Origin: Pyrinomonadaceae bacterium
Lineage (GTDB): Bacteria; Acidobacteriota; Blastocatellia; Pyrinomonadales; Pyrinomonadaceae
Assembly: GCA_035645715.1 (NCBI GenBank)
Contig: DASQMB010000056.1
Location: 18,551 to 82,550 of the forward strand
Length of the DNA: 64,000 nt
Direction: 5' to 3'
The position numbers and the translations under genes were made by a program. The notes beneath the pieces were generated by a model. The model was not told the origin of the DNA, made no database searches, and saw nothing but the letters and a program-made list of their open reading frames with translations. This document shows positions 492 to 12,262 of this stretch, one piece after another. The first letter of the stretch is position 1; every line of letters starts with the position of its first letter.

Positions 492-3400
492 TCAGTTGAC
501 CCAGCGGGCGACGGCGCCGGCCGCGCGCAGCTCCTCCTGAAGCCGCTCGTTCGGCTGGACGCGGATGACCCCTCCGGTCCGCGCCTTGACCTTCAGGCCC
601 TCGTCTTTGAGGAGCATGTCGAGGAGCACCTCGCAGTCGCCGGGGTGCGCCAGCAGCGCCTGCGAGATGGTCTCGCTGACGCGGACGCAGTCGCCGTCCA
701 CCTCGAACTCGACGACGAGCGTCTTGTTCGGGCCGCCGAAGCGGGAGCCGGCGTTCTTCGCCGTCTCGATGGGAGCGACCTCGTCGAGGATGAGCTGCGG
801 GTTGCCCTCGGCCGCGCCCTCGCAGCGGCCCGTCACGACCACGACCTTGTCGTTGGCCGCCTCCTGCCCCTTCGTCCTGAAAGACTCGGGCCACATCACG
901 CACTTGACGGAGCTGCCCGAGAGGTCTTCGACCTTGAACATCGCGTAGCGGTCGCCCTTCTTCGTGTTCCTGACGGCGAACTCCGAGATGATGCCGGCCA
1001 CCCTCACCCGCGCCGTCGGCCCCGCCGAGACGAGGTCGGGGACGGGCGTGCAGTTGAGCCAGCCGATCTTCTCCGCGTGGTCTTCGAGCGGGTGGCCCGA
1101 GACGTAGAAGCCGACCGCGGCCTTCTCGTTGTCGAGCATCTGCCGGTGCGTCCAGGCGGGCGCGTCGGTCAGTTGCGCGTGGTCGTCCGGGCCTTCGGGC
1201 TGGGCGGCCGCCAGCATGCCGAACATGTCCGCCTGCCCGCTGTCGCGCTCGCGCCGCCTGCGCGCCCCCAGCTCCAGCGCGCGGTCCACGTTCGCGTGCA
1301 GCGTGGCCCGCCAGTGGTGAGGCTCGTCGCCCGAGGGCATCAGCGAGTCGAAGGCCCCGGCGCAGACGAGGCTCTCCATCACGCGCTTGCCGGAGCCCTT
1401 CTCGCCGACGCGCTCGGCGAAGTCGAAGAGCGACTTGAAGGGGCGCTCGCGCCGCCCCTCGATGACGGCCGAGACGGCCGTCTGCCCTAAGCCCTTGATG
1501 GCCGAAAGCCCGTAGCGGATCGCGCCCTCGACCGGCGTAAAGCCCTGCCGCGACTCGTTCACGTCGGGCGGCAGCATCCTGATCTTCTGCGCACGCAGTT
1601 CCGAAGCGTACTTGAAAATCTTGGCCGCGTCGTCCGTACAGTAGGTCATCACGGCCGCGTAGAAGTGCTCGGGGAAGTTGGCCTTGAGGTACGCGGTCTG
1701 GTAGGCGACGTGGGCGTAGGCGACCGAGTGAGAGCGGTTGAAGCCGTAGTCGGCGAACTGCGCCATCAGGCGGAAGATTTCCTTCGCCTTCTTCTTCGGT
1801 ATCTTGTTCTTCGTGCAGCCCTCGACGAACTTCTCCTCGTGGACGGCCATCTCCTCGCGCTTCTTCTTGCCCATCGCGCGGCGCATCAAATCGGCCTCGC
1901 CCAGTGAGTAGCCGCCGAGCTTCTGCGCGAGCTGCATGATCTGTTCCTGGTAGACCAGCACGCCGTAGGTGTTCCTGAGGATGTCCTCCATCTCGGGCGT
2001 GATGTACTCGACCGTCTTCTTGCCGTGGTAGCGGTCGATGAAGTCGTCCACCATGCCGCCGTCTAAGGGGCCGGGGCGGTAGAGGGCGTTTAAGGCCGAG
2101 AGGTCTTCGATGGACTTGGGCTTGAGCTTGCGGCAAATCTCCTGCATCCCCGAAGACTCGAACTGGAAGACGGCTTCGGTGCGCCCGAGGCCGAACAGCT
2201 CGAAGGTTTTCGGGTCGTCCTGCGGGACGAGCTTCCAGTCGATCTCGCGCCCGTGCAGCTCGCGGATCGACTTACAGCACTGGTCGATGATGGAGAGGGT
2301 CGTGAGGCCCAGGAAGTCCATCTTGAGCATGCCGGTCTTTTCGAGGTCCGACATCTCGAACTGCGTCGTGAACTCCTGCTTGTTGTTGACGGCGACGGGT
2401 ATCAGCTCTTCGAGCGGTTTGGGCGAGATGACGACGCCGGCCGCGTGCACGGACGAGTGGCGCGCGCAGCCTTCGAGCCGCTTGGCGATGTCGATGACCT
2501 TCCTGACCTGCGGGTCCGACTCGACCGCCTGCTTCAGCTCGGGCACCATCTCAAGGGCCTGGCTGATCGAGACGTTGCGGCCCCGGATGGGCGGCGGGAT
2601 GAGCTTCGCTATCTTCTCCACGTCGGCGTAGGGCATGTCGAGGGCGCGCCCCACGTCCTTAATCGCCGCCTTCGAGGCGAGCGTGCCGAAGGTGATGATC
2701 TGGCAGACCGAGTCGCGGCCGTAGAGCTGCGTGACGTGGTTGATGACCTCCGCGCGGCCGTTGACGCAGAAGTCAATATCAATATCCGGCATCGAGACGC
2801 GCTCGGGGTTGAGGAAGCGCTCGAAGAGCAGGTCGTACTGGAGCGGGTCAACGTCGGTGATCTCCAGGCAATAGGCGATGAGCGAGCCGGCGGCCGAGCC
2901 GCGGCCCGGCCCGACGGGAATGCCGCGCTCGCGCGCGAAGCGGATGAAGTCCCAGACGATGAGGAAGTAAGAGGGGAACCCCATCTGCTTGATGATGGCG
3001 ATCTCGCGCGAGACCCTCTGCTGGTATTCGTCGAGGCGGTGCCTGAGCGTCCCCGAAGAGATCATCGGGTCCCAGACGGTCTCGCGCCGCTTCTCGTACC
3101 CTTGCCTGACGACCTTCTCGAAATACTCGTCAATCGAGATGTCGCCCTCCTCGGCCGGGATGGGGAAGACGGGCAGGTGGTTCTCGCCCAGGGGGAGCTT
3201 GAGATTGCACATCTCTGCCACCTCCATCGTGCGCGAGACGGCGTCGGGCGCGTAGGTGAAGATTTGCGCCATCTCGTCGGGCGAGCGGACGTACCATTCC
3301 GGGCCGCCGAAGCTCATCCGGTCGCGGTCGTTGACGGTCTTGCCCGTGCCGATGCAGAGCATCACATCGTGGGCCTCGTAGTCGTCGCGCATCAGGTAGT

Positions 3401-4034
3401 GTGCGTCGTTGGTGGCGACGAGCGGGATGCCTGTGCGCTTCGACAGCTCGACGAGGCTGCCGTTGATCCGTTGCTGGTCTTCGAGCTTGTGGTCCTGTAT
3501 TTCGAGGTAGTAGTTGCCGCGCCCGAGGATGTCCTGAAACTCGTGGGCCGCGCGCTCGGCCGCTTCGATGTTGCCCTCCTTGAGGTGCGCCTGCGGCACG
3601 CCCGACAGACAGGCCGAGAGCCCGATGAGGCCGCCGCCGAACTGCGACAAGAGCTCGCGGTCGATGCGCGGCTTGCGGTAGAAGCCCTCGCGGAAAGCCT
3701 TCGACGTGAGGCGCACGAGGTTGTGGTAGCCCTCGCGGTCCTTCGCCAGCAGGATCATGTGGTTGTAGGGCTTCACGCCTTTGCGCCCGTCGGCCTTCTC
3801 GAACCTGCTCGACGGTGCCAGGTAGACCTCACAGCCGATCAGCGGTTTGATGTCGGCCGCTTTCATCTCCTTGTAGAAGGAGACGGCGCCGTACATGTTG
3901 CCGTGGTCTGTCATGGCGCAGGCCGTCATGCCGAGTTCTTTGACGCGCTCGGCGAGGGGCTTGATCTGGATGGCGCCGTCGAGGAGTGAATAGTCTGTGT
4001 GCAGGTGGAGGTGTGCGAAGTCAGTCTTGGGCAT
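492..4034 (-). CDS. dnaE: DNA polymerase III alpha subunit
   Basis: The ORF is 1180 aa. It has the N-terminal PHP motif HLHLHTDYSLLDG, the pol III alpha core (FLIVWDFIRFARERGIPVGPGRGSAAGSLIAYCLEITDVDP, PDIDIDF) and a C-terminal OB-fold region. Confidence 0.97.
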   Translation of the reverse strand: MPKTDFAHLHLHTDYSLLDGAIQIKPLAERVKELGMTACAMTDHGNMYGAVSFYKEMKAADIKPLIGCEVYLAPSSRFEKADGRKGVKPYNHMILLAKDREGYHNLVRLTSKAFREGFYRKPRIDRELLSQFGGGLIGLSACLSGVPQAHLKEGNIEAAERAAHEFQDILGRGNYYLEIQDHKLEDQQRINGSLVELSKRTGIPLVATNDAHYLMRDDYEAHDVMLCIGTGKTVNDRDRMSFGGPEWYVRSPDEMAQIFTYAPDAVSRTMEVAEMCNLKLPLGENHLPVFPIPAEEGDISIDEYFEKVVRQGYEKRRETVWDPMISSGTLRHRLDEYQQRVSREIAIIKQMGFPSYFLIVWDFIRFARERGIPVGPGRGSAAGSLIAYCLEITDVDPLQYDLLFERFLNPERVSMPDIDIDFCVNGRAEVINHVTQLYGRDSVCQIITFGTLASKAAIKDVGRALDMPYADVEKIAKLIPPPIRGRNVSISQALEMVPELKQAVESDPQVRKVIDIAKRLEGCARHSSVHAAGVVISPKPLEELIPVAVNNKQEFTTQFEMSDLEKTGMLKMDFLGLTTLSIIDQCCKSIRELHGREIDWKLVPQDDPKTFELFGLGRTEAVFQFESSGMQEICRKLKPKSIEDLSALNALYRPGPLDGGMVDDFIDRYHGKKTVEYITPEMEDILRNTYGVLVYQEQIMQLAQKLGGYSLGEADLMRRAMGKKKREEMAVHEEKFVEGCTKNKIPKKKAKEIFRLMAQFADYGFNRSHSVAYAHVAYQTAYLKANFPEHFYAAVMTYCTDDAAKIFKYASELRAQKIRMLPPDVNESRQGFTPVEGAIRYGLSAIKGLGQTAVSAVIEGRRERPFKSLFDFAERVGEKGSGKRVMESLVCAGAFDSLMPSGDEPHHWRATLHANVDRALELGARRRRERDSGQADMFGMLAAAQPEGPDDHAQLTDAPAWTHRQMLDNEKAAVGFYVSGHPLEDHAEKIGWLNCTPVPDLVSAGPTARVRVAGIISEFAVRNTKKGDRYAMFKVEDLSGSSVKCVMWPESFRTKGQEAANDKVVVVTGRCEGAAEGNPQLILDEVAPIETAKNAGSRFGGPNKTLVVEFEVDGDCVRVSETISQALLAHPGDCEVLLDMLLKDEGLKVKARTGGVIRVQPNERLQEELRAAGAVARWVN

Positions 4035-4209
4035 GATGGCGAAAGCTGCTGTCGGGGACCGGGTTTGCCTTGATAGTTGTAGTTGTCGAACGTAGTTTGC
4101 GGGGCCGCGCTGTAGGGGCCGTCCGCGAGCGTGCGGAGTGGTGAGTATAGCCGCTCAGGGTGGTGTGTCAACGGCCCTCGCCGGGCGCCGGAAAAAGGGC
4201 GAAAAAGGT

Positions 4210-4247
4210 GAGAGGGGAGACCGCCCGCGCGGGCGGTCTCCCCTCTC
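4210..4247 (-). terminator. Intrinsic terminator downstream of the S8 protease gene
   Basis: A perfect 17-bp stem (gagaggggagaccgccc / gggcggtctcccctctc) with a 4-nt loop. On the minus strand it is followed by ACCUUUUUCGCCCUUUUUCC. Confidence 0.7.
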
Positions 4248-4294
4248 GCTCGTTTAACTTGAGGCGGCCCCGCCCCGCGGCGGCCGCACGGGAC

Positions 4295-5839
4295 TTACGG
4301 GTTTTGCAGCCAGAGGCTGTAGCTGCCCGAGCCGCTGTAGGAGTAGACGTGCCAGCGGTAGTAGCCGGCCGTCCCGTAATAAGAGATGTCCTCGTTCGAG
4401 GTGGCCGTCTCGCCGCGGGCCACGATCACCCACGAAGAGCCGTTCCACTTTTGCAGGTAGAGGTCGAAGTCGGCGCCCGACGTGGGGCCGCGCAGCCAGC
4501 CGCGGTGATAGCCCGAGACTGAGCTGTAGTAGTAGCTCCCGTTCGGCTGGTACTGCGACGAGCCGGTGCCGGAGAGCGAGCCCGTGTACTGCGTGCAGCC
4601 GGTGCAGGGCGCGCCCCCGCCCCCGCCGCCGTCGGTCGTCAGCAGCGAGTAGAGCAGGCGGTTGGGCGAGCCCGTGCCGATGCCCGTCAGCTTGCCGGTC
4701 GAGGCGGTGTTGATGATCTGCGAGGCCACGGTCGAGGGCGTGGCCCCCGTGTTGTTTTGCAGGTAGAGGGCCGCGACGCCCGCCACGTGCGGCGACGCCA
4801 TCGAGGTGCCGCTGATGGTGTTGGTCGCCGTGTCGGAGGTGTACCAGGCCGACTGGACGGAGGAGCCGGGCGCGAAGATGTCGAGGCAGGTGCCGATGTT
4901 CGAGAAGTCGGAGCGCGCGTCCGACGAGGTGGTCGAACCGACCGTGACGGCGTTCGCCACGCGGGCCGGCGAGTAGTTGCAGGCGTTGGCCCCGTAATCG
5001 TTGCCGGCCGCGACCACCACCGTCACGCCCGAGTTGATGAGGTTGTTGACGGCCGTGTCGAGCGCCGAAGAGGCCCCGCCGCCGAGGCTCATGTTCGCCA
5101 CGGCCGGCAGCACGCGGTTCTGCCGCACCCAATCAACGCCCGCGATCACGCCCGAATCCGTCCCGTTGCCCGTGCAGTTCAAGACGCGCACGGCGTAGAG
5201 GCTGACGCCCTTCGCCACGCCGTAGGTCGAGCCGCCGACCGTGCCGGCGACGTGCGTGCCGTGCCCGTTGCAGTCGTTCGAGTTCTGCCCGTCGCCGATG
5301 GCATCGTAGCCGGCGAACGCGCGCCCGCCGAAGTCCTGGTGCGTGCGCCGGATGCCGGTGTCGATGATGTAGGCGCGGACGCCCGAGCCGGTCGGCGTGT
5401 AGTTGTAAGCCGAGTTGAGTGGCCGGTCGCGCTGGTCTATGCGGTCGAGACCCCAGGGCGGGTTCGACTGCGTGGCCGAGATGCTGACGACGCCGTCCTC
5501 TTCGACGTACTCGACGCGCGGGTCGTCGGCCAGCCGCTCGGCCTGCTCCGCGCTCATCTCGACCGAGAAGCCGAGCAGCGCGTGGCGGTAGAGCCTCTTG
5601 ACCTTGCCGTTGTGGGCCGAGGCCATGTCGGCCGCGACGTTCGGCACGAAGGAACTGTCGCCGTAGGGCTGCGCCGCCCATTCGTTCAGGACGACGATGT
5701 AGTTGTTAGGGACGGGGCGGGCCTTCTTGCGAATCTTCTCTTTCTTCTGGCCGCTGACGACCGGCGTGGTGGTCTGAGACGTGAAGGCCGCGGCGGCCAG
5801 GACCAGGACGGCCGCGAGGAACAGGGTGACTCTCTTCAT
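4295..5839 (-). CDS. Secreted subtilisin-family (S8, proteinase K-like) serine protease with N-terminal propeptide and C-terminal PPC-like domain
   Basis: It has a signal peptide ([19 protein letters not shown]). Catalytic triad contexts are YIIDTGI (Asp), [10 protein letters not shown] (His) and [12 protein letters not shown] (Ser). The tail is Gly-rich followed by an aromatic-rich beta domain. Confidence 0.9.
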
Positions 5840-6295
5840 CTAGCAAAACCTCCGGTGGGCTCAAGAATTCCAGCGTTGGCGCGCGGGGCGCCCGCGCGCG
5901 ACGTTGCGTTGTGAGGGTGGGGCGGTCCGCGCGCGTGACCGCCCCGCTTGGTCCGGGGCTTGAAGCGAGCTGTGCTGCCGCGTCAGAAGCCGCTGACGTT
6001 GAGCCGCCCGCTGGGCAGTCCGTTGACGGGAAGAGATAGCCTTACCGTCGGTATGAAGCCGTCACAAACGAGATGAATTCGGAGAGGCCCGGGCGCCGAA
6101 CAGGCGCACCGCCGCCCGCCTGAACCGCAGACACTTTCCGCCGGGCACACTACGGCCGGGCGAAGTAAACGCCTGAAATTTTTACTTGATTGAGGGGCAA
6201 GAGGTAGCTCGTGAGAGCCGTACTAACAACCTGCTTCGGGGGAAGAGCAGCTTTCGGGGTGAGGCACTATAACAAAAATTTCTGCGCGCGCAAGA

Positions 6296-6331
6296 AAAAT
6301 TTTCGGAATTATGCACTTAGCACACCCAAAG
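6296..6331. repeat. Left terminal inverted repeat
   Basis: aaaattttcggaattatgcacttagcacacccaaag. The reverse complement of 8901..8936 is aaaattttgggaattatggctttgacacacccaaag. Confidence 0.6.
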
Positions 6332-6351
6332 AAAAAGCGTAGTGTCTACGC

Positions 6352-7350
6352 ATGAAGAAGAAGGAAGCCGGCTCCATCCTCGAACCCCACTTCACCGACG
6401 AAGATAAGGCGCGCGAATACCTCGAAAAGATGCGCTGGCCGGAGGGCGTCGTCTGCCCGCATTGCGGCCTGTTGGGCGAAGCCTATCGGATTAACGTCAA
6501 GGAAAAGACGGCCGAAGAAATCGAAGCCATGAAGGCGGCTGGCAAGCGCGTCCGCAAAGCCCGCAAAGGTCTGTGGAAGTGCGCCGGCTGCCGCGAACAG
6601 TTTACGGTGACGGTCAAGAGCATCTTTGAAGACAGCCACATCCCGCTTCACAAGTGGCTGCTGGCGATTCACCTTCTCACCGCGTCAAAGAAGGGCATGA
6701 GCGCGCATCAGCTTATGCGGATGCTCGACATTAAGCAGTACAAGTCGGCGTGGTTCATGGCGCACCGCATCCGCTACGCGATGACGGGCGAGATTTTCGA
6801 GAAGGCGTCTGGCATCGTTGAAGTTGATGAGGCTTACATCGGCGGGAAGCGCCGGAATAAGCACGCCCTAGCGGTCAAGCCGGGCCAGCGCGCGCAAGAG
6901 TCGGCTCGGCCCGGTCGCGGACAAGGCGGCCGTGGTTACGGTCCTTGAGCGCGGCGGCAAGGTCCGCTCGCGGCACGTCGAGAAGGTGACGGCTAAGAAC
7001 CTTCATGCGGTCATTAACGAAGTGTGCGAGGAAGACGCCCATGTTATGACCGATACGGGCGTGCTGCGCGGGATGAAGGACCGGAAGCACTCATTGGTGA
7101 ATCACAAGGCCGATAGTATGTGCAGTATGAGGAAGGCGTGTGCGTCACCACTAACACCGTCGAGGGCTACTTCTCGCTTCTGAAACGCGGCATCAATGGC
7201 GTCTACCATCACGTCAGCAAGAAGCACCTTCACAGGTACTTGGGGGAGTTTGATTTCCGCTACAATGGGCGTAAAATAACAGACGGCGAGAGAGCCGAAG
7301 GTGCCATCAAAGGCGCCGAGGGGAAACGCCTAAAGTACCGGGACTCATGA
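6352..7350 (+). pseudogene. IS1595-family (ISXO2-like) transposase, disrupted by two frameshifts
   Basis: Three consecutive ORF fragments in different frames (6352..6948, 6932..7183, 7120..7350) together rebuild the family layout. The pieces are an N-terminal zinc ribbon (CPHCG...KCAGC), VEVDEAYIGGKRRNKH, AAVVTVLERGGKVRSRHV, MTD...LVNH, then YVQYEEGVCVTTNTVEGYFSLLKRGINGVYHHVSKKHLHRYLGEFDFRYN. Confidence 0.85.
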
Positions 7351-7389
7351 AGCGGCGCGTGAAATAGTAGGCTGATTTCACGCGCCGCT
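7351..7389 (+). terminator. Perfect 15-bp hairpin immediately after the transposase stop codon (terminator-like, no U tract)
   Basis: The arms are agcggcgcgtgaaat and atttcacgcgccgct, with the loop agtaggctg. Confidence 0.35.
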
Positions 7390-7463
7390 ATCCCTCTAGA
7401 AATAGGTTGCGGCGAGCGGCCTTCGTCTATACAATCCGGCATCTAACTCCCGATAGGCTCATC

Positions 7464-8270
7464 ATGGCAGTTGAACTACGCATAGTTTGGGATGGGGATG
7501 TTCCGGGCATAGCGGAGCATCGGCTGAGCATTGCCGCGTTCGGTGAAGCCATCAACCTCCTTCTCGCGGCATACCGAAGAATCGCCAGCAATATGTTTAG
7601 CGCCGCAGAGGAGTATGCGGTGACGGGGCGACTGCATAACCTAGCGAAGCTGGTAGATGTTGAGATTGCGGCGATTGAAGGTAGCTCTACCGGGATTGTG
7701 GCGTATGGGACGTTCCGCCCAACGTTTCAGCCCCAAGCCTCCTTTTTTGTCAATGACATTGCTGAGCGAGCCGCCGCCGAACTTGTCGAGTCTATCCAAC
7801 AGGAAGGTAACGGGCAGCCTCGCAATGCGGACGTGCGGAAGTTTCTGGCGGCTTTACCGGAGGGTTTGACGCGACAACGTTACGAGCTAACGGACGACAA
7901 CGGCCAGACCCTACATGCTCCGGTCGAACTTGGGCATCTGAACTTGCCCGCCCCCTCGCTTGTTGACTTGCCCTATCTTTTTGAATTTACAGGTAACGTT
8001 ATCGGGGTGGGCTTTGAGCCGGGTAAAAGTGAAGTTCGCATTAGGACGGTTAGCACCGAAAGCTTACAGCTTTCGGCCACAACGGCGCTCGTAGAGAGAG
8101 CATTATCCCTGCGAAACGACCTTGTGCGTGGAATGGCAGTCAGAAGGAAGGAAGCGCGACTCTTGCGGCTTGACGCGAGGAACGCAGAGCCATTTGCCCT
8201 TACGCCAGAAGTGGCCCGGCGGCATGTCTTCACACGTTGGGATGAACTACTGACGAGGCTTGCCCAATGA
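7464..8270 (+). CDS. Hypothetical 268-aa protein, upstream partner of Doc (no family recognised)
   Basis: The track ORF starts at a TTG (7407); I prefer the ATG at 7464 (MAVELRIVWDG...). Its stop overlaps the doc start in an ATGA (8267..8270). I see no signal peptide, TM segment or known motif. Confidence 0.7.
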   Translation: MAVELRIVWDGDVPGIAEHRLSIAAFGEAINLLLAAYRRIASNMFSAAEEYAVTGRLHNLAKLVDVEIAAIEGSSTGIVAYGTFRPTFQPQASFFVNDIAERAAAELVESIQQEGNGQPRNADVRKFLAALPEGLTRQRYELTDDNGQTLHAPVELGHLNLPAPSLVDLPYLFEFTGNVIGVGFEPGKSEVRIRTVSTESLQLSATTALVERALSLRNDLVRGMAVRRKEARLLRLDARNAEPFALTPEVARRHVFTRWDELLTRLAQ

Positions 8271-8704
8271 ACGGTGCGGAGGTCTGGCGAGAGTTCATCT
8301 CGCCAGAAATCATCATAGAACTGCACGAAGTGGGTATGGATAGATACGGCGGGTTGAAGTCTCTCCCCGTCGAGGGTTGTGTTGAGCGTAGCGCGGGCGG
8401 GGCTTATACGGCGAGTCTGTACACGGCAAAGAATAACCCGCCGACTGCGCTTGAAATTGCGTTACCATTCGCGGGCTATCTTTTATTCTATCTAGCAAAG
8501 AATCATTGTTTCTCTGACGGCAATAAGCGCGTAGCGTGGACTGCGACAATGCACGTTCTTGCGCATTTCGGTTTGACGTTGACGGCCACCCAAGATGCAG
8601 CCTATGAACTTGTTGACGCGGTGGTAACGGGCAGAATTGAGGGCGGCGCAGACGTGACCCTTTGGCTGGAACAATACCTTACAGCTATTGATTATGAAAG
8701 TTAA
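8267..8704 (+). CDS. doc: Doc (death-on-curing) family Fic-fold toxin
   Basis: The ORF is 145 aa and carries the Doc-type Fic motif HCFSDGNKRVAW (HxFxDGNKR) at 8504..8530. Its size is typical of the family. Confidence 0.9.
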   Translation: MNGAEVWREFISPEIIIELHEVGMDRYGGLKSLPVEGCVERSAGGAYTASLYTAKNNPPTALEIALPFAGYLLFYLAKNHCFSDGNKRVAWTATMHVLAHFGLTLTATQDAAYELVDAVVTGRIEGGADVTLWLEQYLTAIDYES

Positions 8705-8861
8705 AGAACCCACACCAAACCCGGCAGGCAAAAAAGGCAAGCCGCTCAACTTGTCACATCTCACCTTTGATGAGGCTGTGCGGAAAATGCTAGCGACTGA
8801 GCCACCGAAGCCAGAACCTAAAGCCCCGAAGCCGCCGAAGAAGTCAGCCCCGCGCAAGTAA
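8694..8861 (+). CDS. Small Lys/Pro-rich ORF (55 aa) overlapping the doc 3' end
   Basis: The ATG at 8694 overlaps the doc stop by 11 nt. The product is MKVKEPTPNPAGKKGKPLNLSHLTFDEAVRKMLATEPPKPEPKAPKPPKKSAPRK. It falls below the ORF-track size cutoff and has no obvious Shine-Dalgarno sequence. Coding status is uncertain. Confidence 0.35.
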   Translation: MKVKEPTPNPAGKKGKPLNLSHLTFDEAVRKMLATEPPKPEPKAPKPPKKSAPRK

Positions 8862-8900
8862 GCCCCGCCCGCCGTTCCGCGCCCGATTACCTCTCTAATC

Positions 8901-8936
8901 CTTTGGGTGTGTCAAAGCCATAATTCCCAAAATTTT
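8901..8936. repeat. Right terminal inverted repeat
   Basis: ctttgggtgtgtcaaagccataattcccaaaatttt, which is 30/36 complementary to 6296..6331. Confidence 0.6.
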
Positions 8937-9052
8937 CGGGCCGGACCGTCTGTAGGTTCGGTGCGTGCGGGACCGCACTTTTCCAATTTCCACGAAGGCC
9001 CGCCTGGCCCCGGCGGCAGTGCCGGCAGTGACGGCAACTTGCTGACGCCCGT

Positions 9053-10780
9053 TCAGCCCTTGCCCTTGCCCCTGCGCTCACGGTAGCGCCTGAGCATCTG
9101 CGGCGAGAGCAGGAGCGTTTGCAGCAGCGACCCCGTGGCGAAGCGCCGCGCGAGCGAGCGGAAGAGTGCCGCGCCCTCGGGCGTGTAGCTGAACCACCAC
9201 ACGTCCTGGAGGCGCGCGAGGCGGTTGACGTGGACGTGGTGCGGGGCGACGAGTTCGAGCAGTCCGAGCCGGCCGTGGGTGCGGCCGAGGCCGCTCTGCT
9301 TGACGCCGCCCCACGGCGTCTGCGCGATGCCGTGTGTGTAGAGCACCTCGTTGACCATGACGGTGCCGGCCTCGATGCGCTCGGCGAGGCGGCGGCCGCG
9401 GTCGAGGTTGCGCGTCCAGACGCTCGCCGTCAGGCCGAAGTGGCTGTCGTTGGCGAGGCGGACGGCCTCGTCCTCCGATGCGAAGGTCATCACGGGCAGG
9501 ACCGGCCCGAATGTCTCCTCGCGCATGACGGCCATCGAGTGGTCCACGCCGACGAGCACAGTCGGCGCGTGGAACCAGCCGCCGGTGGCGCCCGTCTCAC
9601 GGCCCGTGGACTGGGGATCGTCGCCGTCGCCGCGGCGTTCTGGCTTGGGGCGCGAGCCGCCCGAAAGGATGCGCGCGCCGCGCTCGACGGCCTCGCGGAT
9701 GTGGCGCTCGACCGTCATGAGTTGGCGCTCGCTCGACATCGCGCCGAGGTCGGCCGTGCCAGCCTCGGCCCCTTCGGCCGCTGCCTGGCGCAGCGCCCCG
9801 ACCTTCGAGACGACGCGGGCCAGGAACTCTTCGGCCACACGCTCGTGGACGTAGCAACGCTCGACCGAGGCGCATGCCTGCCCCGAGTTGGCGAACGCGC
9901 CCCAGACGGCCGCGCTCGAAGCCGCGTCGAGGTCCGCGTCTTCGAGGACGATCATCGGGTCTTTGCCGCCGAGTTCGAGCACGACTGGCGTCAGCCGCCG
10001 CGCCGCGGCCTCGGCCACGCGCCGCCCCGTCTCGACGCTGCCGGTGAACATGATCTTGTCGGCGCCGGCCTCGACGAGCGCCGCGCCGGTCGTGCCGTCG
10101 CCCGTCACCACTTCGAGCACGCCCTCGGGCAAACCGGCGCGGGCGAACACCTCGGCGATCTTCATGCCCACGAGCGGCGTCAGCTCGCTCGGCTTGAGAA
10201 CGACGGAGTTGCCGGCCATCAGCGCCATCACGACCTCGCCGAGCGGGATGGCCCACGGGAAGTTCCACGGCGAGATGATGCCGACCACGCCGAGCGGGCG
10301 GTAATGGATCGTCGAGCTGCGGCCCATGAAGCGATAGAGGCCGATGTCTATCCGCTCGGGCCTGAGCATCCGCTCGCTGCGGCGCGCGAAGAACTGCATC
10401 AGGTCGAGCGTCGGCACGACCTCCATCGCCAGCGCCTCGGCCTCGGGCTTGCCCGACTCGCGCGAGACGAGCCGCGCCACCTCGTCCATCTCTTCGAGCA
10501 AGAGGCGCCGGGCGCGCAGCACGACCGCGCCCCTTTCACGGAAACCTAACGCCGCCCAACCCTTCTGCGCCGCCCGCGCGCGCGCGACCGCGGCCACGAC
10601 CTCTTCGGCCGTGCGTGCGGGCACGCGCCCGACCTCCTCGCCGGTCGCCGGGTCGTACGAGACTATCTCACGCTCCGCCACGGCCCGAGTGCCCGCCCGT
10701 GTGCCGGCCTGCGCGTCCGCCTGTGTGCCGGCCTGCGTCGTGCCGGCTGTTTGCGGCGCGTCGGTGATCTGTATTGACAT
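9053..10780 (-). CDS. NAD(P)+-dependent aldehyde dehydrogenase family protein
   Basis: It has the ALDH motifs VVLELGGKDP and the catalytic Cys context SGQACASVERCYV. I place the start at MSIQITD (10780). The 764-aa track ORF adds an Arg-rich, non-coding-looking N-terminal extension that would overlap pepP. Confidence 0.9.
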   Translation of the reverse strand: MSIQITDAPQTAGTTQAGTQADAQAGTRAGTRAVAEREIVSYDPATGEEVGRVPARTAEEVVAAVARARAAQKGWAALGFRERGAVVLRARRLLLEEMDEVARLVSRESGKPEAEALAMEVVPTLDLMQFFARRSERMLRPERIDIGLYRFMGRSSTIHYRPLGVVGIISPWNFPWAIPLGEVVMALMAGNSVVLKPSELTPLVGMKIAEVFARAGLPEGVLEVVTGDGTTGAALVEAGADKIMFTGSVETGRRVAEAAARRLTPVVLELGGKDPMIVLEDADLDAASSAAVWGAFANSGQACASVERCYVHERVAEEFLARVVSKVGALRQAAAEGAEAGTADLGAMSSERQLMTVERHIREAVERGARILSGGSRPKPERRGDGDDPQSTGRETGATGGWFHAPTVLVGVDHSMAVMREETFGPVLPVMTFASEDEAVRLANDSHFGLTASVWTRNLDRGRRLAERIEAGTVMVNEVLYTHGIAQTPWGGVKQSGLGRTHGRLGLLELVAPHHVHVNRLARLQDVWWFSYTPEGAALFRSLARRFATGSLLQTLLLSPQMLRRYRERRGKGKG

Positions 10781-10966
10781 AGGTTTTCGGCCCTCGCGTG
10801 CGCGGCGATTATCGCTCGAAACGGGGCGGGCGAGAAGCCGGCGCGTCGGTCGCCGTGCGCGGCCGTGCGGGCGCGGTCGGGCGGGCACGTTTCCCGCGGC
10901 CCGCGCCGGTCGGTTAGAATCGCCCCGGTCGAAAATCATCCGAGACGCCGGGAGACTTTGACAGCT

Positions 10967-12262
10967 ATGCGCAGACCGCAGCTCACCGAGTTCATGCGCC
11001 GCATGGAGCCGAACTCGGTCGCCGTCCTGCCTTCGGCGCGCGAGGTGACGCGCTCGCACGACACCGAATACCGCTTCCGCCAGGACACGGACTTTTACTA
11101 CGTGACCGGCTTCCACGAGCCCGACTCCATCGCAGTCGTCGCGCCCGGCCGGGAAGAGGTTTATACGCTCTTCGTCCGCCCGCGCGACCCCGAGAAGGAG
11201 ACATGGACGGGGCGGCGTGCCGGCGTAGAGGGCGCGAAGGAACGCTTCGGCGCCGACGCCTCCTTCCCCGTCGAGGAGTTCGAGTCGAAGCTCGCGGACC
11301 TCCTGGCGGGCGCGCGTAACCTCTACTACCGGCTCGGGGGCGGCCACCCTGACCTAGACCAGACCGTCATCCGCCAGCTCTCGCGGATGCGGATGATGGG
11401 GCGCAAAGGGGTCCAGCCGCCGCAGGCGATAATTGACCCCGGCTCGCTGCTCCACGAGATGCGGCTGTTTAAGATGGACGAGGAGATCGCCCTCATGCGC
11501 CGCTCGGCCGAGATCGCGGCCGAGGGGCACCGCGAGGCGATGCGGGCCGCGCGCCCGGGTATGAACGAGTACGAGATCGAGGCCCTCATCGAGTACGTCT
11601 TCCGCCGCGCGGGTGCCGCCGCGCCAGCCTACAACTCCATCGTCGGTGCCGGCGCCAACGCCACCATCCTCCACTACGTGGACAACAACGCCGAGTTGAG
11701 AGACGGCGACCTGCTCCTGATCGACGCCGGCGCAGAGTTTCAGGGCTACGCCTCCGACATCACGCGCACCTTCCCCGTCAGCGGCAGGTTCACGCCGCCG
11801 CAGCGCGCCGTCTACGAGGTCGTGCTCGACTGCCAGCAGCGGTGCATCGAGATGGTCGCGCCCGGCGTGACGTTGGAGGAGATGCACCAGCGCTCGGTCG
11901 AGCTGCTGACCGAGGGCATGGTCCGCCTCGGCCTGCTCGAGGGGGAAGTGAAGAAGTTGATCGAGGATGAAGAGTATAAGAAGTTCTACATGCACCGCCT
12001 CGGCCACTACCTCGGCATGGACGTGCACGACGCCGGCCTCTACCACCTCGACGGGCAGCCGCGCGCCGTCGAGGCCGGCATGGTGATGACGGTCGAGCCC
12101 GGCATCTACGTCGCCGAGGACGCCGAGGGCGTGCCCGCAGAGTTCCGCGGCATCGGCATCCGCATCGAAGACGACGTGCTCGTCACCCCCGAAGGTTACG
12201 AGGTCCTGACCTCGGCCGCGCCTAAACAGGTCGAAGAGATCGAGGCGCTGATGGCGCGCTAG
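10967..12262 (+). CDS. pepP: Xaa-Pro aminopeptidase (M24B)
   Basis: Metal-ligand contexts are DLLLIDAGAEFQGYASDITRT, HRLGHYLGMDVHD, VMTVEPGIY and GIRIEDDVLVT. The start is taken at the ATG 10967 (MRRPQLTEF). Confidence 0.9.
   Translation: MRRPQLTEFMRRMEPNSVAVLPSAREVTRSHDTEYRFRQDTDFYYVTGFHEPDSIAVVAPGREEVYTLFVRPRDPEKETWTGRRAGVEGAKERFGADASFPVEEFESKLADLLAGARNLYYRLGGGHPDLDQTVIRQLSRMRMMGRKGVQPPQAIIDPGSLLHEMRLFKMDEEIALMRRSAEIAAEGHREAMRAARPGMNEYEIEALIEYVFRRAGAAAPAYNSIVGAGANATILHYVDNNAELRDGDLLLIDAGAEFQGYASDITRTFPVSGRFTPPQRAVYEVVLDCQQRCIEMVAPGVTLEEMHQRSVELLTEGMVRLGLLEGEVKKLIEDEEYKKFYMHRLGHYLGMDVHDAGLYHLDGQPRAVEAGMVMTVEPGIYVAEDAEGVPAEFRGIGIRIEDDVLVTPEGYEVLTSAAPKQVEEIEALMAR

Follow-up and report, generated by a model that had tools for sequence, protein, structure and literature searches.

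Within the window, a stretch of 64,000 nucleotides from an Acidobacteriota genome, a gene for a Doc-type toxin directly follows a gene for a large uncharacterised protein (ORF268), and both are enclosed, together with a third small ORF, by the inverted repeats of an insertion sequence (IS) of the IS1595 family. The reading that we favour, and hold to be probable, is that this element is a 'transporter IS' carrying a coupled Doc toxin-antitoxin (TA)-like pair, with ORF268 as a large antitoxin of a new kind. The evidence comes from the strict association of the two genes across genomes, metagenomes and a temperate phage, from the boundaries of the IS, and from the sequence and predicted structure of both proteins.

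The ORF268-doc gene pair

ORF268 starts at the ATG at position 7464, a start supported by the alignment of its homologues, and is joined to doc by the start/stop overlap ATGA at 8267–8270, with the 3′ end of doc in turn overlapping the small ORF by 11 nt (Table 1). These ORFs and overlaps, as well as the motif HCFSDGNKR in Doc, had been described in an earlier note on this DNA, and all are present in the sequence. Scanning of positions 5700–9300 against Rfam gave no match to an RNA family, and a promoter and terminator scan gave chance-level results only. The perfect inverted repeat at 7351–7389 has no counterpart at the other loci compared, nor was a conserved operator-like palindrome found upstream of ORF268 across these loci.

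Table 1. Features of the ORF268-doc locus and of the surrounding insertion sequence (positions in the window)
Feature	Position	Strand	Remark
Target-site duplication, left copy, AAAATTTT, 8 bp	6296–6303	.	Same octamer abuts both element ends
Left terminal inverted repeat, 28 nt, CGGAATTATGCACTTAGCACACCCAAAG	6304–6331	+	Ends fit the GGnAAT[AT]AT... consensus
Transposase pseudogene, IS1595-family (ISXO2-like), three reading frames	6352–7350	+	Pfam matches and tblastn
Perfect 15-bp inverted repeat, 9-nt loop	7351–7389	+	Between transposase stop and ORF268; candidate terminator or operator
ORF268	7464–8270	+	Putative antitoxin or partner of Doc; uncharacterised family of ~265 aa
doc, 145 aa	8267–8704	+	Fic-fold toxin gene, kinase-type motif HCFSDGNKR
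Small ORF, 55 aa, Lys/Pro-rich	8694–8861	+	Within the IS; doubtful status; start ATG 8694
Right terminal inverted repeat, 28 nt, reverse complement GGGAATTATGGCTTTGACACACCCAAAG	8901–8928	-	Pairs with left end
Target-site duplication, right copy, AAAATTTT, 8 bp	8929–8936	.	Perfect repeat of left copy

The Doc protein matched the Fic family PF02661 in Pfam at 35.1 bits (gathering cut-off 24, E 2.5e-8) and PHROG 577 'Doc-like toxin' over its whole length (E 7e-17), and its residues 10–125 align with residues 3–110 of P1 Doc (3K33, E 5.5e-7). The motif HCFSDGNKR (residues 80–88) fits the Doc-type HxFx(D/N)(A/G)NKR, in which K replaces the second G of the Fic motif. The score against NCBIfam TIGR01550 (DOC_P1) was 33.2 bits and did not reach the cut-off of 38.65, which sets the window Doc apart from the close P1-type members, in a divergent clade of the same family. 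With its motif intact and its full-length alignment with P1 Doc, the protein looks functional. The catalytic motif is likewise intact in 47/55 members of the clade, and the catalytic His has been lost in 8/55 Docs although their pairs are intact, suggesting that toxicity is not universal.

According to the earlier note this Doc lacks a Phd/YefM-type partner and is coupled instead to the large upstream gene, and this arrangement, with a conserved partner of ~265 aa, holds across the Doc clade. A survey of Doc neighbourhoods, which the note had proposed, gave a near-universal co-occurrence: the Doc gene lies directly downstream of an ORF268 homologue at 22/22 testable genome loci and at 43/45 testable metagenome loci. 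Found in >65 independent loci, the arrangement is not due to chance. The two genes overlap by 4 nt in 12 of 18 intact pairs, with the others spaced by -1 to +15 nt. All Doc relatives at 37–48% identity have an ORF268 homologue upstream, and a relative at 35% identity is partnered by a 75-aa MazE and not by ORF268. The pair is also present in the cultured, temperate Myxococcus phage Mx9, as the adjacent genes p03 and p02; no ORF268 homologue was found in a plasmid collection.

ORF268 and doc form a self-contained mobile unit. DNA homology with the closest relative is limited to 7446–8716, corresponding to these two genes, and at other loci the pair was found beside housekeeping genes, a phage integrase, a serine recombinase or an IS1-like transposase. 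About 40% of testable loci sit within IS elements, and the majority of the pairs lie away from any transposase, intact and next to unrelated genes or in a phage. Identical ORF268 and Doc proteins were recorded on two contigs, and relatives at 72–91% identity are intact as well. Where decay was seen, ORF268 was broken beside an intact Doc at none of the loci, the reverse was found at one and both were broken at four, a pattern to be read with the caveat that some frameshifts are from nanopore-derived metagenome-assembled genomes and may be sequencing errors. Inter-protein mutual information from 38 pairs was above the shuffled-pairing null for all three ORF268 regions (z 6–14), and since the top-scoring pairs lie in clade-specific indels, this signal is attributed to phylogeny and not to contacts.

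The lack of any recognisable motif in ORF268, as stated in the earlier note, was borne out by searches of Pfam, NCBIfam, PADLOC and PHROGs, none of which gave a match; a known antitoxin domain, which the note had set against its own claim, was thus not found in these libraries, and neither was a recognisable DNA-binding domain. None of 46 aligned homologues had a Pfam match, and no family member matched DUF4065/Panacea in Pfam at E ≤1. The family comprises ~415 representatives (clusters at 50% identity, E ≤1e-3), all of ~265 aa. An AF2 model of ORF268 (pLDDT 83) predicts an α/β N-terminal part, an OB-like barrel (~168–240) and a C-terminal helix (248–267) with a lower pLDDT than the core; W259 and L266, in this helix, are invariant across the homologue alignment. 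A Foldseek search with the model, as suggested in the earlier note, returned weak OB-fold matches from the PDB (best E 3e-4), with SSB, Stn1 and IF1 among the matches to the C-terminal half, and no similarity to any antitoxin fold. Residues 1–132 modelled alone (pLDDT 66) gave nothing below E 0.16 against the PDB, and the family profile searched against PDB sequences gave only noise-level matches, to ScoE, ribosomal protein L23 and a designed coiled coil.

The IS1595-family element around the pair

The element spans 6304–8928 (2,625 bp) and holds the transposase remnant and all three ORFs. This context of inverted repeats, target duplication and transposase was absent from the earlier note. 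With the palindromic duplication counted in, the inverted repeat amounts to 36 nt with 83% complementarity. The element is a low-GC island, with 50–58% GC against ~70% in its flanks. Its transposase matched Zn_ribbon_IS1595 (PF12760, E 2.9e-14) and DDE_Tnp_IS1595 (PF12762) in Pfam, with the matches spread over three ORFs, and tblastn with intact relatives as queries showed that residues ~165–228 are encoded in frame +2 and the parts on either side in frame +1. It is homologous to the intact transposases of loci L001, L005 and L012, and its two frameshifts make the window element a defective, non-autonomous copy.

Since the octamer AAAATTTT is palindromic, the duplication in the window is ambiguous when taken alone. 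Six more elements (L001, L003, L006, L012, L019 and L021) have the gene order tnp-ORF268-doc, share the GGnAAT[AT]AT... end consensus and are flanked, at different sites, by perfect 8-bp duplications, which in these six are non-palindromic. The pair is intact despite a dead transposase in the window and at L006, L011, L019 and L024. Strict co-descent of transposase and cargo was considered and dropped: between L001 and L012 the transposases are 74% identical and the ORF268 proteins 44% identical, in a comparison limited to the four loci with an intact transposase, and these incongruent identities indicate that the history of IS and cargo is not one of simple co-descent. For the window itself, we propose that the transporter IS would have inserted at an intergenic AAAATTTT site of the high-GC host genome, and that the two frameshifts would later have inactivated its transposase.

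A putative antitoxin and its alternatives

The window Doc is of the Fic-fold kinase toxin type and, by homology with P1 Doc, would phosphorylate EF-Tu and so stop translation. ORF268 would be its dedicated partner, from a family that appears to replace the ~73-aa Phd or the MazE antitoxin throughout the Doc clade, and the best-supported function that we can infer for it is that of an antitoxin acting through its C-terminal helix. It would neutralise Doc via direct binding, with the amphipathic helix (F256, W259, L262/L263 and L266) as the most likely contact by analogy with the Phd C-terminus. The globular body, consisting of the predicted α/β domain and OB-like barrel with an invariant GVGFEPG loop, could have a second role, with stability control and ligand sensing or binding as candidates. 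Conservation runs across all 268 aa, including seven conserved Arg and this loop, and goes beyond what would be needed if the body only held a neutralising tail in place. The pair may promote retention of its carrier, be it an IS, a phage or an integrase island, by working as a module for addiction or exclusion, and such a role would explain why it is still intact here after decay of the transposase. An extension of this proposal, which we consider unlikely, is that ORF268 is a ligand-sensing switch freeing Doc on cue, with the pair integral to the IS life cycle or to immunity. The cue could be phage infection, ssDNA or a transposition intermediate, either nucleic acid or protein, and the outcome could be growth arrest tied to transposition or element loss, or exclusion immunity.

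An alternative that we judge possible, if on the unlikely side, is that the pair is an abortive-infection or phage-exclusion system, in which ORF268 is an OB-like sensor that releases Doc on infection and the hitch-hiking on IS elements is incidental. It overlaps with the favoured explanation because ORF268 would still keep Doc inactive, and differs from it in the biological role and in the job of the globular domain. The surroundings of the pair speak in both directions: it lies beside the antirepressor region in Mx9 and in integrase islands elsewhere, with another copy adjoining a large N6/N4 methyltransferase, but the ~40% of testable loci in IS elements are not in defence islands, and housekeeping genes flank many solo loci. 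Doc weakly matches the PADLOC candidate defence families PDC-S23, PDC-S05 and PDC-M59B, whereas ORF268 has no PADLOC match. A large, conserved and globular partner is in line with the sensory Panacea antitoxins (PMC10440598). Compared with viral models, full-length ORF268 resembles three uncharacterised phage proteins, one of which is annotated with DUF6575, a domain also named for an E. coli defence system obtained by experimental selection (PMC9519451); these structural matches, however, are at low TM (0.28–0.38) and to otherwise unannotated proteins only.

That all three ORFs serve the IS lineage as accessory factors in transposition, instead of forming a TA system, is in our view very unlikely. 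ORF268 could then bind DNA ends or ssDNA, and the Doc kinase could regulate the transposase, ORF268 or a host factor. The order and orientation tnp-ORF268-doc, kept between the terminal repeats in seven or more elements, would suit such functions, as would the OB-like C-terminal half of ORF268, its many conserved arginines and a family of basic small ORFs that is commoner in IS-borne copies. However, over half of the pairs are intact in places without a nearby transposase, others have survived a dead transposase, and the two genes alone are common to the window and its closest relative. Most members of the IS1595 family are not known to require such accessory factors.

Even less credence can be given to the module in the window being an inert relic, with a dead IS and ORFs that are open by chance or through recent decay. 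The two transposase frameshifts and the catalytic His missing in some members of the Doc clade would fit with this, but ORF268 and Doc are full length and have all family-invariant residues as well as an intact motif, and neither the identical proteins on two contigs nor the intact relatives would be expected of a relic.

The 55-aa downstream ORF gave no family match in searches of Pfam, NCBIfam, PADLOC and PHROGs. Its place is taken by an unrelated 99-aa ORF at L039 (84% Doc identity), and L040 has no ORF there. A family of ~54-aa basic ORFs (consensus MKPAPAPKVPGNTPWERLDNAVRTVLTVPKEALLKEEARLKRLRAKKRAKK) follows doc at 7/33 testable metagenome loci and about 7/23 genome loci, is enriched in IS-borne copies and also occurs at loci without Doc; most loci have no third ORF after doc. 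The window ORF was tried as a member of this family and rejected, as its best domain scored 4.0 bits against the family HMM, within the shuffled range (4.8–7.7 bits for the top shuffles). The option raised in the earlier note, that this ORF is the true antitoxin in reverse order and ORF268 an accessory, is hardly credible: the 11-nt overlap with the doc stop, the small, basic and probably disordered nature that it has in common with many antitoxins, and the ~54-aa ORFs at some loci are in line with it, but conservation of the module does not extend to this ORF, whose place in the closest relative is taken by a different one, making it an unlikely antitoxin.

If, as in the favoured explanation, ORF268 neutralises Doc, it would represent a new and structurally distinct antitoxin family beside Phd, the MazE type and PanA, of about 415 clusters and absent from Pfam. 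Its size, globular nature and OB-like domain make it a candidate sensory antitoxin, and, should the switch reading be true, it would found a novel class of Fic/Doc antitoxins with a sensor function. The IS1595-family lineage described here has a TA-like pair as conserved cargo, with seven elements having clean target duplications, and suggests why such cargo outlasts its transposase. The pair of the cultured phage Mx9 provides an experimental entry point. These findings do not amount to a change of paradigm, as the mixing and matching of toxins and antitoxins and the carriage of TA systems on mobile elements are already established.

Comparison with known systems

The phd-doc genes of bacteriophage P1 form a type II TA system, in which Doc is a Fic-fold EF-Tu kinase and Phd has 73 aa. 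The window pair resembles it in having a toxin with full-length homology and the Doc-type motif, an upstream and translationally coupled partner gene, and a place on mobile DNA, with a temperate phage among the carriers. In contrast to Phd, the partner in the window has 268 aa, lacks a Phd/YefM or recognisable DNA-binding domain and is globular, with a predicted α/β and OB-like fold, and the window Doc falls below the TIGR01550 cut-off and has a clade-specific HCF signature. As in canonical type II TA systems, the ORF268 and doc genes are co-oriented, tightly coupled and conserved as a pair. A canonical antitoxin of ~70–90 aa of the Phd/YefM, MazE/AbrB or RHH type was not found upstream of the window doc, and the view of the earlier note that the module departs from the textbook phd-doc architecture therefore stands, with an upstream partner of 268 aa that has none of these domains.

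The C-terminal peptide of Phd alone suffices for neutralisation of Doc (PMC9207808). In the Doc:PanA pair of Corynebacterium doosanense, described in the NetFlax study, it is the C-terminal 'Phd-C' of a large globular antitoxin that neutralises, leaving an accessory or sensory part to the globular domain (PMC10440598). By analogy, Doc:PanA would be the closest mechanistic precedent for ORF268, as both combine Doc with a large globular partner and ORF268 also has a conserved C-terminal helix. The two differ in that ORF268 does not match DUF4065/Panacea and has a different predicted fold, and the likeness of its tail to Phd-C consists of a hydrophobic heptad-like pattern only, with no statistical support.

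The window element shares with the IS1595-family transporter IS a transposase with a Zn-ribbon and an ISXO2-like DDE domain, short inverted repeats, an 8-bp duplication and passengers that lie after the transposase and before the right end. Its ends (GGnnATTAT) may resemble those of the ISNwi1 subgroup in the ISfinder table. Transporter IS (tIS) are IS with passenger genes (Siguier, Gagnevin and Chandler 2009, cited in PMC3129680 and PMC11891212), and the passengers that we found cited for them are transcription regulators, methyltransferases and resistance genes. The passenger in the window is instead a TA-like pair, and the transposase is a pseudogene. We found no report in the literature of an IS1595 element carrying Doc or TA genes, or of the ORF268 partner family.

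Type II TA pairs have been described inside Tn3-family transposons, beside the transposition genes, with a proposed role in stabilisation of the element (Lima-Mendez et al. 2020, PMC7157771). The window element likewise carries a TA-like pair beside a transposition gene. It differs from the Tn3 family in type and mechanism, being a small DDE IS that lacks both resolvase and res site; the text of PMC7157771 does not mention Doc, and the putative antitoxin in the window belongs to a new family. The theme of TA pairs inside transposons, known for the Tn3 family, is thus extended to small IS elements.

The Doc-family gene and its large upstream partner

The layout of three ORFs proposed in the earlier note, with its coordinates and both of its overlaps, is present in the window (Table), and the ATG at 7464 is supported as the start of the 268-aa gene (ORF268) since all homologues share an M-x-x-E-L-K-I N-terminus. 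The 145-aa protein is by sequence a member of the Doc family, as the same note had suggested: it scores 35.1 bits against Pfam Fic (cut-off 24), matches PHROG 577 'Doc-like toxin' over its full length (E 7e-17), aligns with residues 3–110 of P1 Doc (3K33, E 5.5e-7) and carries the Doc-type motif HCFSDGNKR, and the kinase-type active site of the predicted protein is intact. Its score against NCBIfam TIGR01550 falls just under the cut-off (33.2 versus 38.65 bits), thus placing it in a divergent clade. The HCF signature characterises the ORF268-partnered clade, with HPF found in a MazE-partnered relative and in two other most distant relatives (35–37% identity; partner determined for the MazE-partnered one only). 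Eight of 55 clade members have S, Q or N in place of the catalytic His, with both genes intact (at loci L008, L015 and L019, and in Doc homologues P0056, P0059, P0061, P0065 and P0068), and p02 of phage Mx9 (L047 3795–4259) has Q there, again with both genes intact; such proteins may be attenuated or repurposed toxins.

Neither ORF268 nor the small ORF had a match in Pfam, NCBIfam, PADLOC or PHROGs, and Pfam likewise gave no match to 46 aligned ORF268 family members or to ten more, the phage copy among them, in agreement with the first reading of the 268-aa protein as lacking a recognisable motif. A word-indexed search with ORF268 returned 47 clusters of hypothetical proteins of 256–285 aa and one 179-aa fragment, mainly from Acidobacteriota, and 1.84 billion cluster representatives, searched exhaustively with a profile, yielded a family of 415 representatives at E≤1e-3 and 255 at E≤1e-30. 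Among the 150 matches listed, nearly all are about 265 aa long and match end to end, and all are too short for a fusion to another domain.

The AF2 model based on the family alignment (pLDDT 83, pTM 0.59) predicts an alpha/beta region (residues 1–156), a barrel of five strands and a helix (residues ~168–240) and a terminal helix (residues 248–267) of lower confidence, at 73–78. Among PDB structures, Foldseek matched this model only weakly, to OB folds (eIF5A, E 3e-4, then Stn1, SSB, IF1, CusF and enterotoxin B), and to no antitoxin fold. Three uncharacterised phage proteins matched near-full-length among viral models (E 7e-8 to 2.5e-6, but TM only 0.28–0.38), and one of these is annotated with DUF6575, a domain named in an E. 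coli defence system found by experimental selection (PMC9519451); this model-based resemblance is a lead rather than a classification. Alignment showed conservation of R20, S22, F26, R38, R39, D65, E114, R125, Q138 and Y140 and, further along the chain, of a GVGFEPG loop (181–187), R192, R217, R232, W259 and L266, and such strong conservation argues that the body of ORF268 has a function of its own.

Conservation of the pair and a candidate antitoxin

Doc lies directly downstream of the ORF268 homologue in 22/23 genome loci, covering Terriglobia, Bryobacterales, Thermoanaerobaculia, Myxococcales and Binataceae (the contig of the 23rd ends 280 nt past the gene), and in 43 of the 45 testable loci among 53 from metagenomes, the two exceptions being short matches confined to the C-terminus. 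These counts clearly dispose of the possibility, raised in the earlier note, that the large protein is never found beside Doc homologues elsewhere. The start and stop codons overlap by 4 nt in 12 of 18 intact pairs, the remainder being spaced by -1 to +15 nt. An ORF268 homologue (33–40% identity) also precedes each of the Doc relatives at 48, 45, 38 and 37% identity, and at 35% identity one relative has in its place a MazE-type antitoxin of 75 aa. The cultured, temperate Myxococcus phage Mx9 encodes an ORF268 homologue (p03, 264 aa, 31% identity, E 9e-21) adjoining p02, annotated as 'putative Doc-like toxin', while phage Mx8 has a truncated remnant only. Pairing in genomes, metagenomes, distant Doc relatives and phage therefore identifies ORF268-Doc as a conserved unit of two strictly coupled genes. 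The Mx8 remnant (L048, NC_003085.1 35217–35882) comprises the first ~190 aa of an ORF268 homologue, without Doc, and lies antisense to two annotated genes, p62 and, in part, p63 ('anti-repressor Ant'), of which the first may be a spurious call over it.

At no locus was ORF268 broken beside an intact Doc; the reverse was seen at one locus and disruption of both genes at four, although some of these loci are from nanopore MAGs. We infer that ORF268 is the cognate antitoxin of Doc. In the simplest mechanism, its conserved amphipathic C-terminal helix (F256, W259, L262/L263, L266) would occlude the Doc groove, which is supported by two precedents: Phd residues 52–73, with their hydrophobic hot spots, suffice for Doc inhibition (PMC9207808), and in Doc:PanA a C-terminal 'Phd-C' element neutralises the toxin from a large globular antitoxin, whose globular domain was proposed to be sensory (PMC10440598). 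Mutual information between ORF268 and Doc gave a signal dominated by phylogeny.

The insertion sequence and other carriers of the pair

Missing from the earlier note, which had the gene layout right, is that the module lies within an IS1595-family insertion sequence with terminal repeats and a duplication. In tblastn with intact relatives, the transposase is in frame +1 except for residues ~165–228, which fall in frame +2, indicating two frameshifts. The outer 8 nt of the bracketing inverted repeat form the palindrome AAAATTTT, for which a target-site duplication of 8 bp outside 28-nt terminal repeats is the better reading, thus delimiting an element of 2,625 bp (6304–8928) that coincides with a GC trough (50–58%, against ~70% in the flanks).

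Features of the window and of related loci (L numbers: loci outside the window)
Feature	Position	Strand	Remarks
IS1595/ISXO2-type transposase	6352-7350		Zn-ribbon and DDE domains; coding sequence spread over three frames; directly upstream of ORF268
36-nt inverted repeat	6296-6331 and 8901-8936		Encloses transposase, ORF268, doc and small ORF
ORF268	7464-8270	+	ORF call and homologue alignment
doc	8267-8704		145 aa; ATGA overlap with ORF268
Small ORF	8694 (ATG)-8861		55 aa, Lys/Pro-rich; 11-nt overlap with doc stop
Target-site duplication, L001			CAAATAAG
Target-site duplication, L012			CAAAATAG
Target-site duplication, L019			CTCGTGAG
Target-site duplication, L003			TCTGTAAC
Target-site duplication, L021			TGATTCTA
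Target-site duplication, L006			GACTTAAG
~54-aa family, L001	6240-6413
~54-aa family, L005	6211-6375
~54-aa family, L006	6221-6400
~54-aa family, L011	6209-6373
~54-aa family, L012	6232-6405
~54-aa family, L041-L045

Judged by sequence motifs in translations only, the insertion point is intergenic, between high-GC genes for a subtilisin-like S8 protease (4295–5839, minus strand) and an aldehyde dehydrogenase (9053–~10600, minus strand), with a high-GC Xaa-Pro aminopeptidase gene beyond (10865–12262, plus strand). Just outside the left end, beyond the element as delimited, ~150 nt of low GC (~52%, 6150–6295) contain a terminator-like hairpin (6157–6175) and had no match in Rfam. From the first base past the transposase stop runs an inverted repeat (7351–7389) with perfect 15-bp arms and a loop of 9 nt. 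It has no T-run, shows no conservation across other loci and could act as a terminator or operator.

In 10/23 genome loci, 13/31 testable metagenome loci and L024–L026, ORF268 is immediately preceded, on its own strand, by an IS1595 transposase. Six related elements share ends of the form GGnAAT[AT]AT... and have perfect, non-palindromic 8-bp duplications at differing sites (Table), thus the transposase-ORF268-doc units transposed as single elements. Their ends presumably resemble those of the ISNwi1 subgroup. These elements fall into the category of IS1595-family 'transporter IS' introduced by Siguier et al. 2009 (cited in PMC3129680 and PMC11891212). The cargo region is variable, since the L001 element (3949–7139, 3.2 kb, perfect terminal repeats) has additional 61-aa and 142-aa ORFs past the small ORF, and the L019 element (2742–6282, 3.5 kb, perfect terminal repeats) has ~1.3 kb separating transposase and ORF268. 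Identity between L001 and L012 is 74% in the transposase versus 44% in the cargo and thus not congruent; the association is old but not simple co-descent. The transposase has often decayed with the pair intact, as in the window, L006, L011, L019 and L024.

Outside IS elements, one copy of the pair adjoins a phage integrase and others a serine recombinase, an IS1-like transposase or ordinary genes of metabolism. In L039, the closest relative at 75% nt identity, homology is limited to the two genes (window 7446–8716). On IS elements, a phage and integrase islands alike, the two genes travel together. At L009, an IS-end-like sequence GGTAATTATCCCTTGAC (4916–4932) lies 39 nt upstream of ORF268, with no transposase or matching right end, and may mark a transposase-less derivative or IS remnant. 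On IS elements the pair probably acts as an addiction or stabilising system for the element or its replicon, a role already proposed for toxin-antitoxin pairs in Tn3 transposons (PMC7157771); where a phage or island carries it, it probably mediates exclusion or abortive infection.

The small downstream ORF and comparison with known systems

The small ORF had been put forward as a possible reverse-order antitoxin. A distinct basic family of ~54 aa (at least 625 clusters, without annotation; consensus MKPAPAPKVPGNTPWERLDNAVRTVLTVPKEALLKEEARLKRLRAKKRAKK) occurs at the 3′ end of IS-borne ORF268-doc modules, following doc in L001, L005, L006, L011, L012 and L024–L026, as degenerate copies in L007 and L022, and in 7/33 testable metagenome loci, mainly IS-borne; it is also found behind unrelated small operons without Doc or IS1595 transposase. 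The window ORF scores 4 bits against the family profile, inside the range of shuffled sequences, and at its position L039 has an unrelated 99-aa ORF and L040 none. Without demonstrable membership of the family and not conserved in the nearest relatives, it is a poor antitoxin candidate and possibly not a genuine gene. The L039 ORF (4731–5030) overlaps the doc stop exactly as in the window and shares the first ~8 codons before diverging completely, indicating that the sequence beyond the doc stop has been replaced.

Our literature search found no description of the ORF268 partner family, or of Doc as cargo of IS1595 elements; toxin-antitoxin partner swapping and carriage on transposons are already established. 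As a pair, ORF268 and Doc would work like a type II toxin-antitoxin module. The defining feature of canonical phd-doc is missing, however, as the partner has no Phd/YefM or other known antitoxin domain, which bears out the view that this is not the textbook arrangement; nor is it a PanA system. The carrier belongs with the IS1595-family transporter IS, of which the window holds a defective copy.
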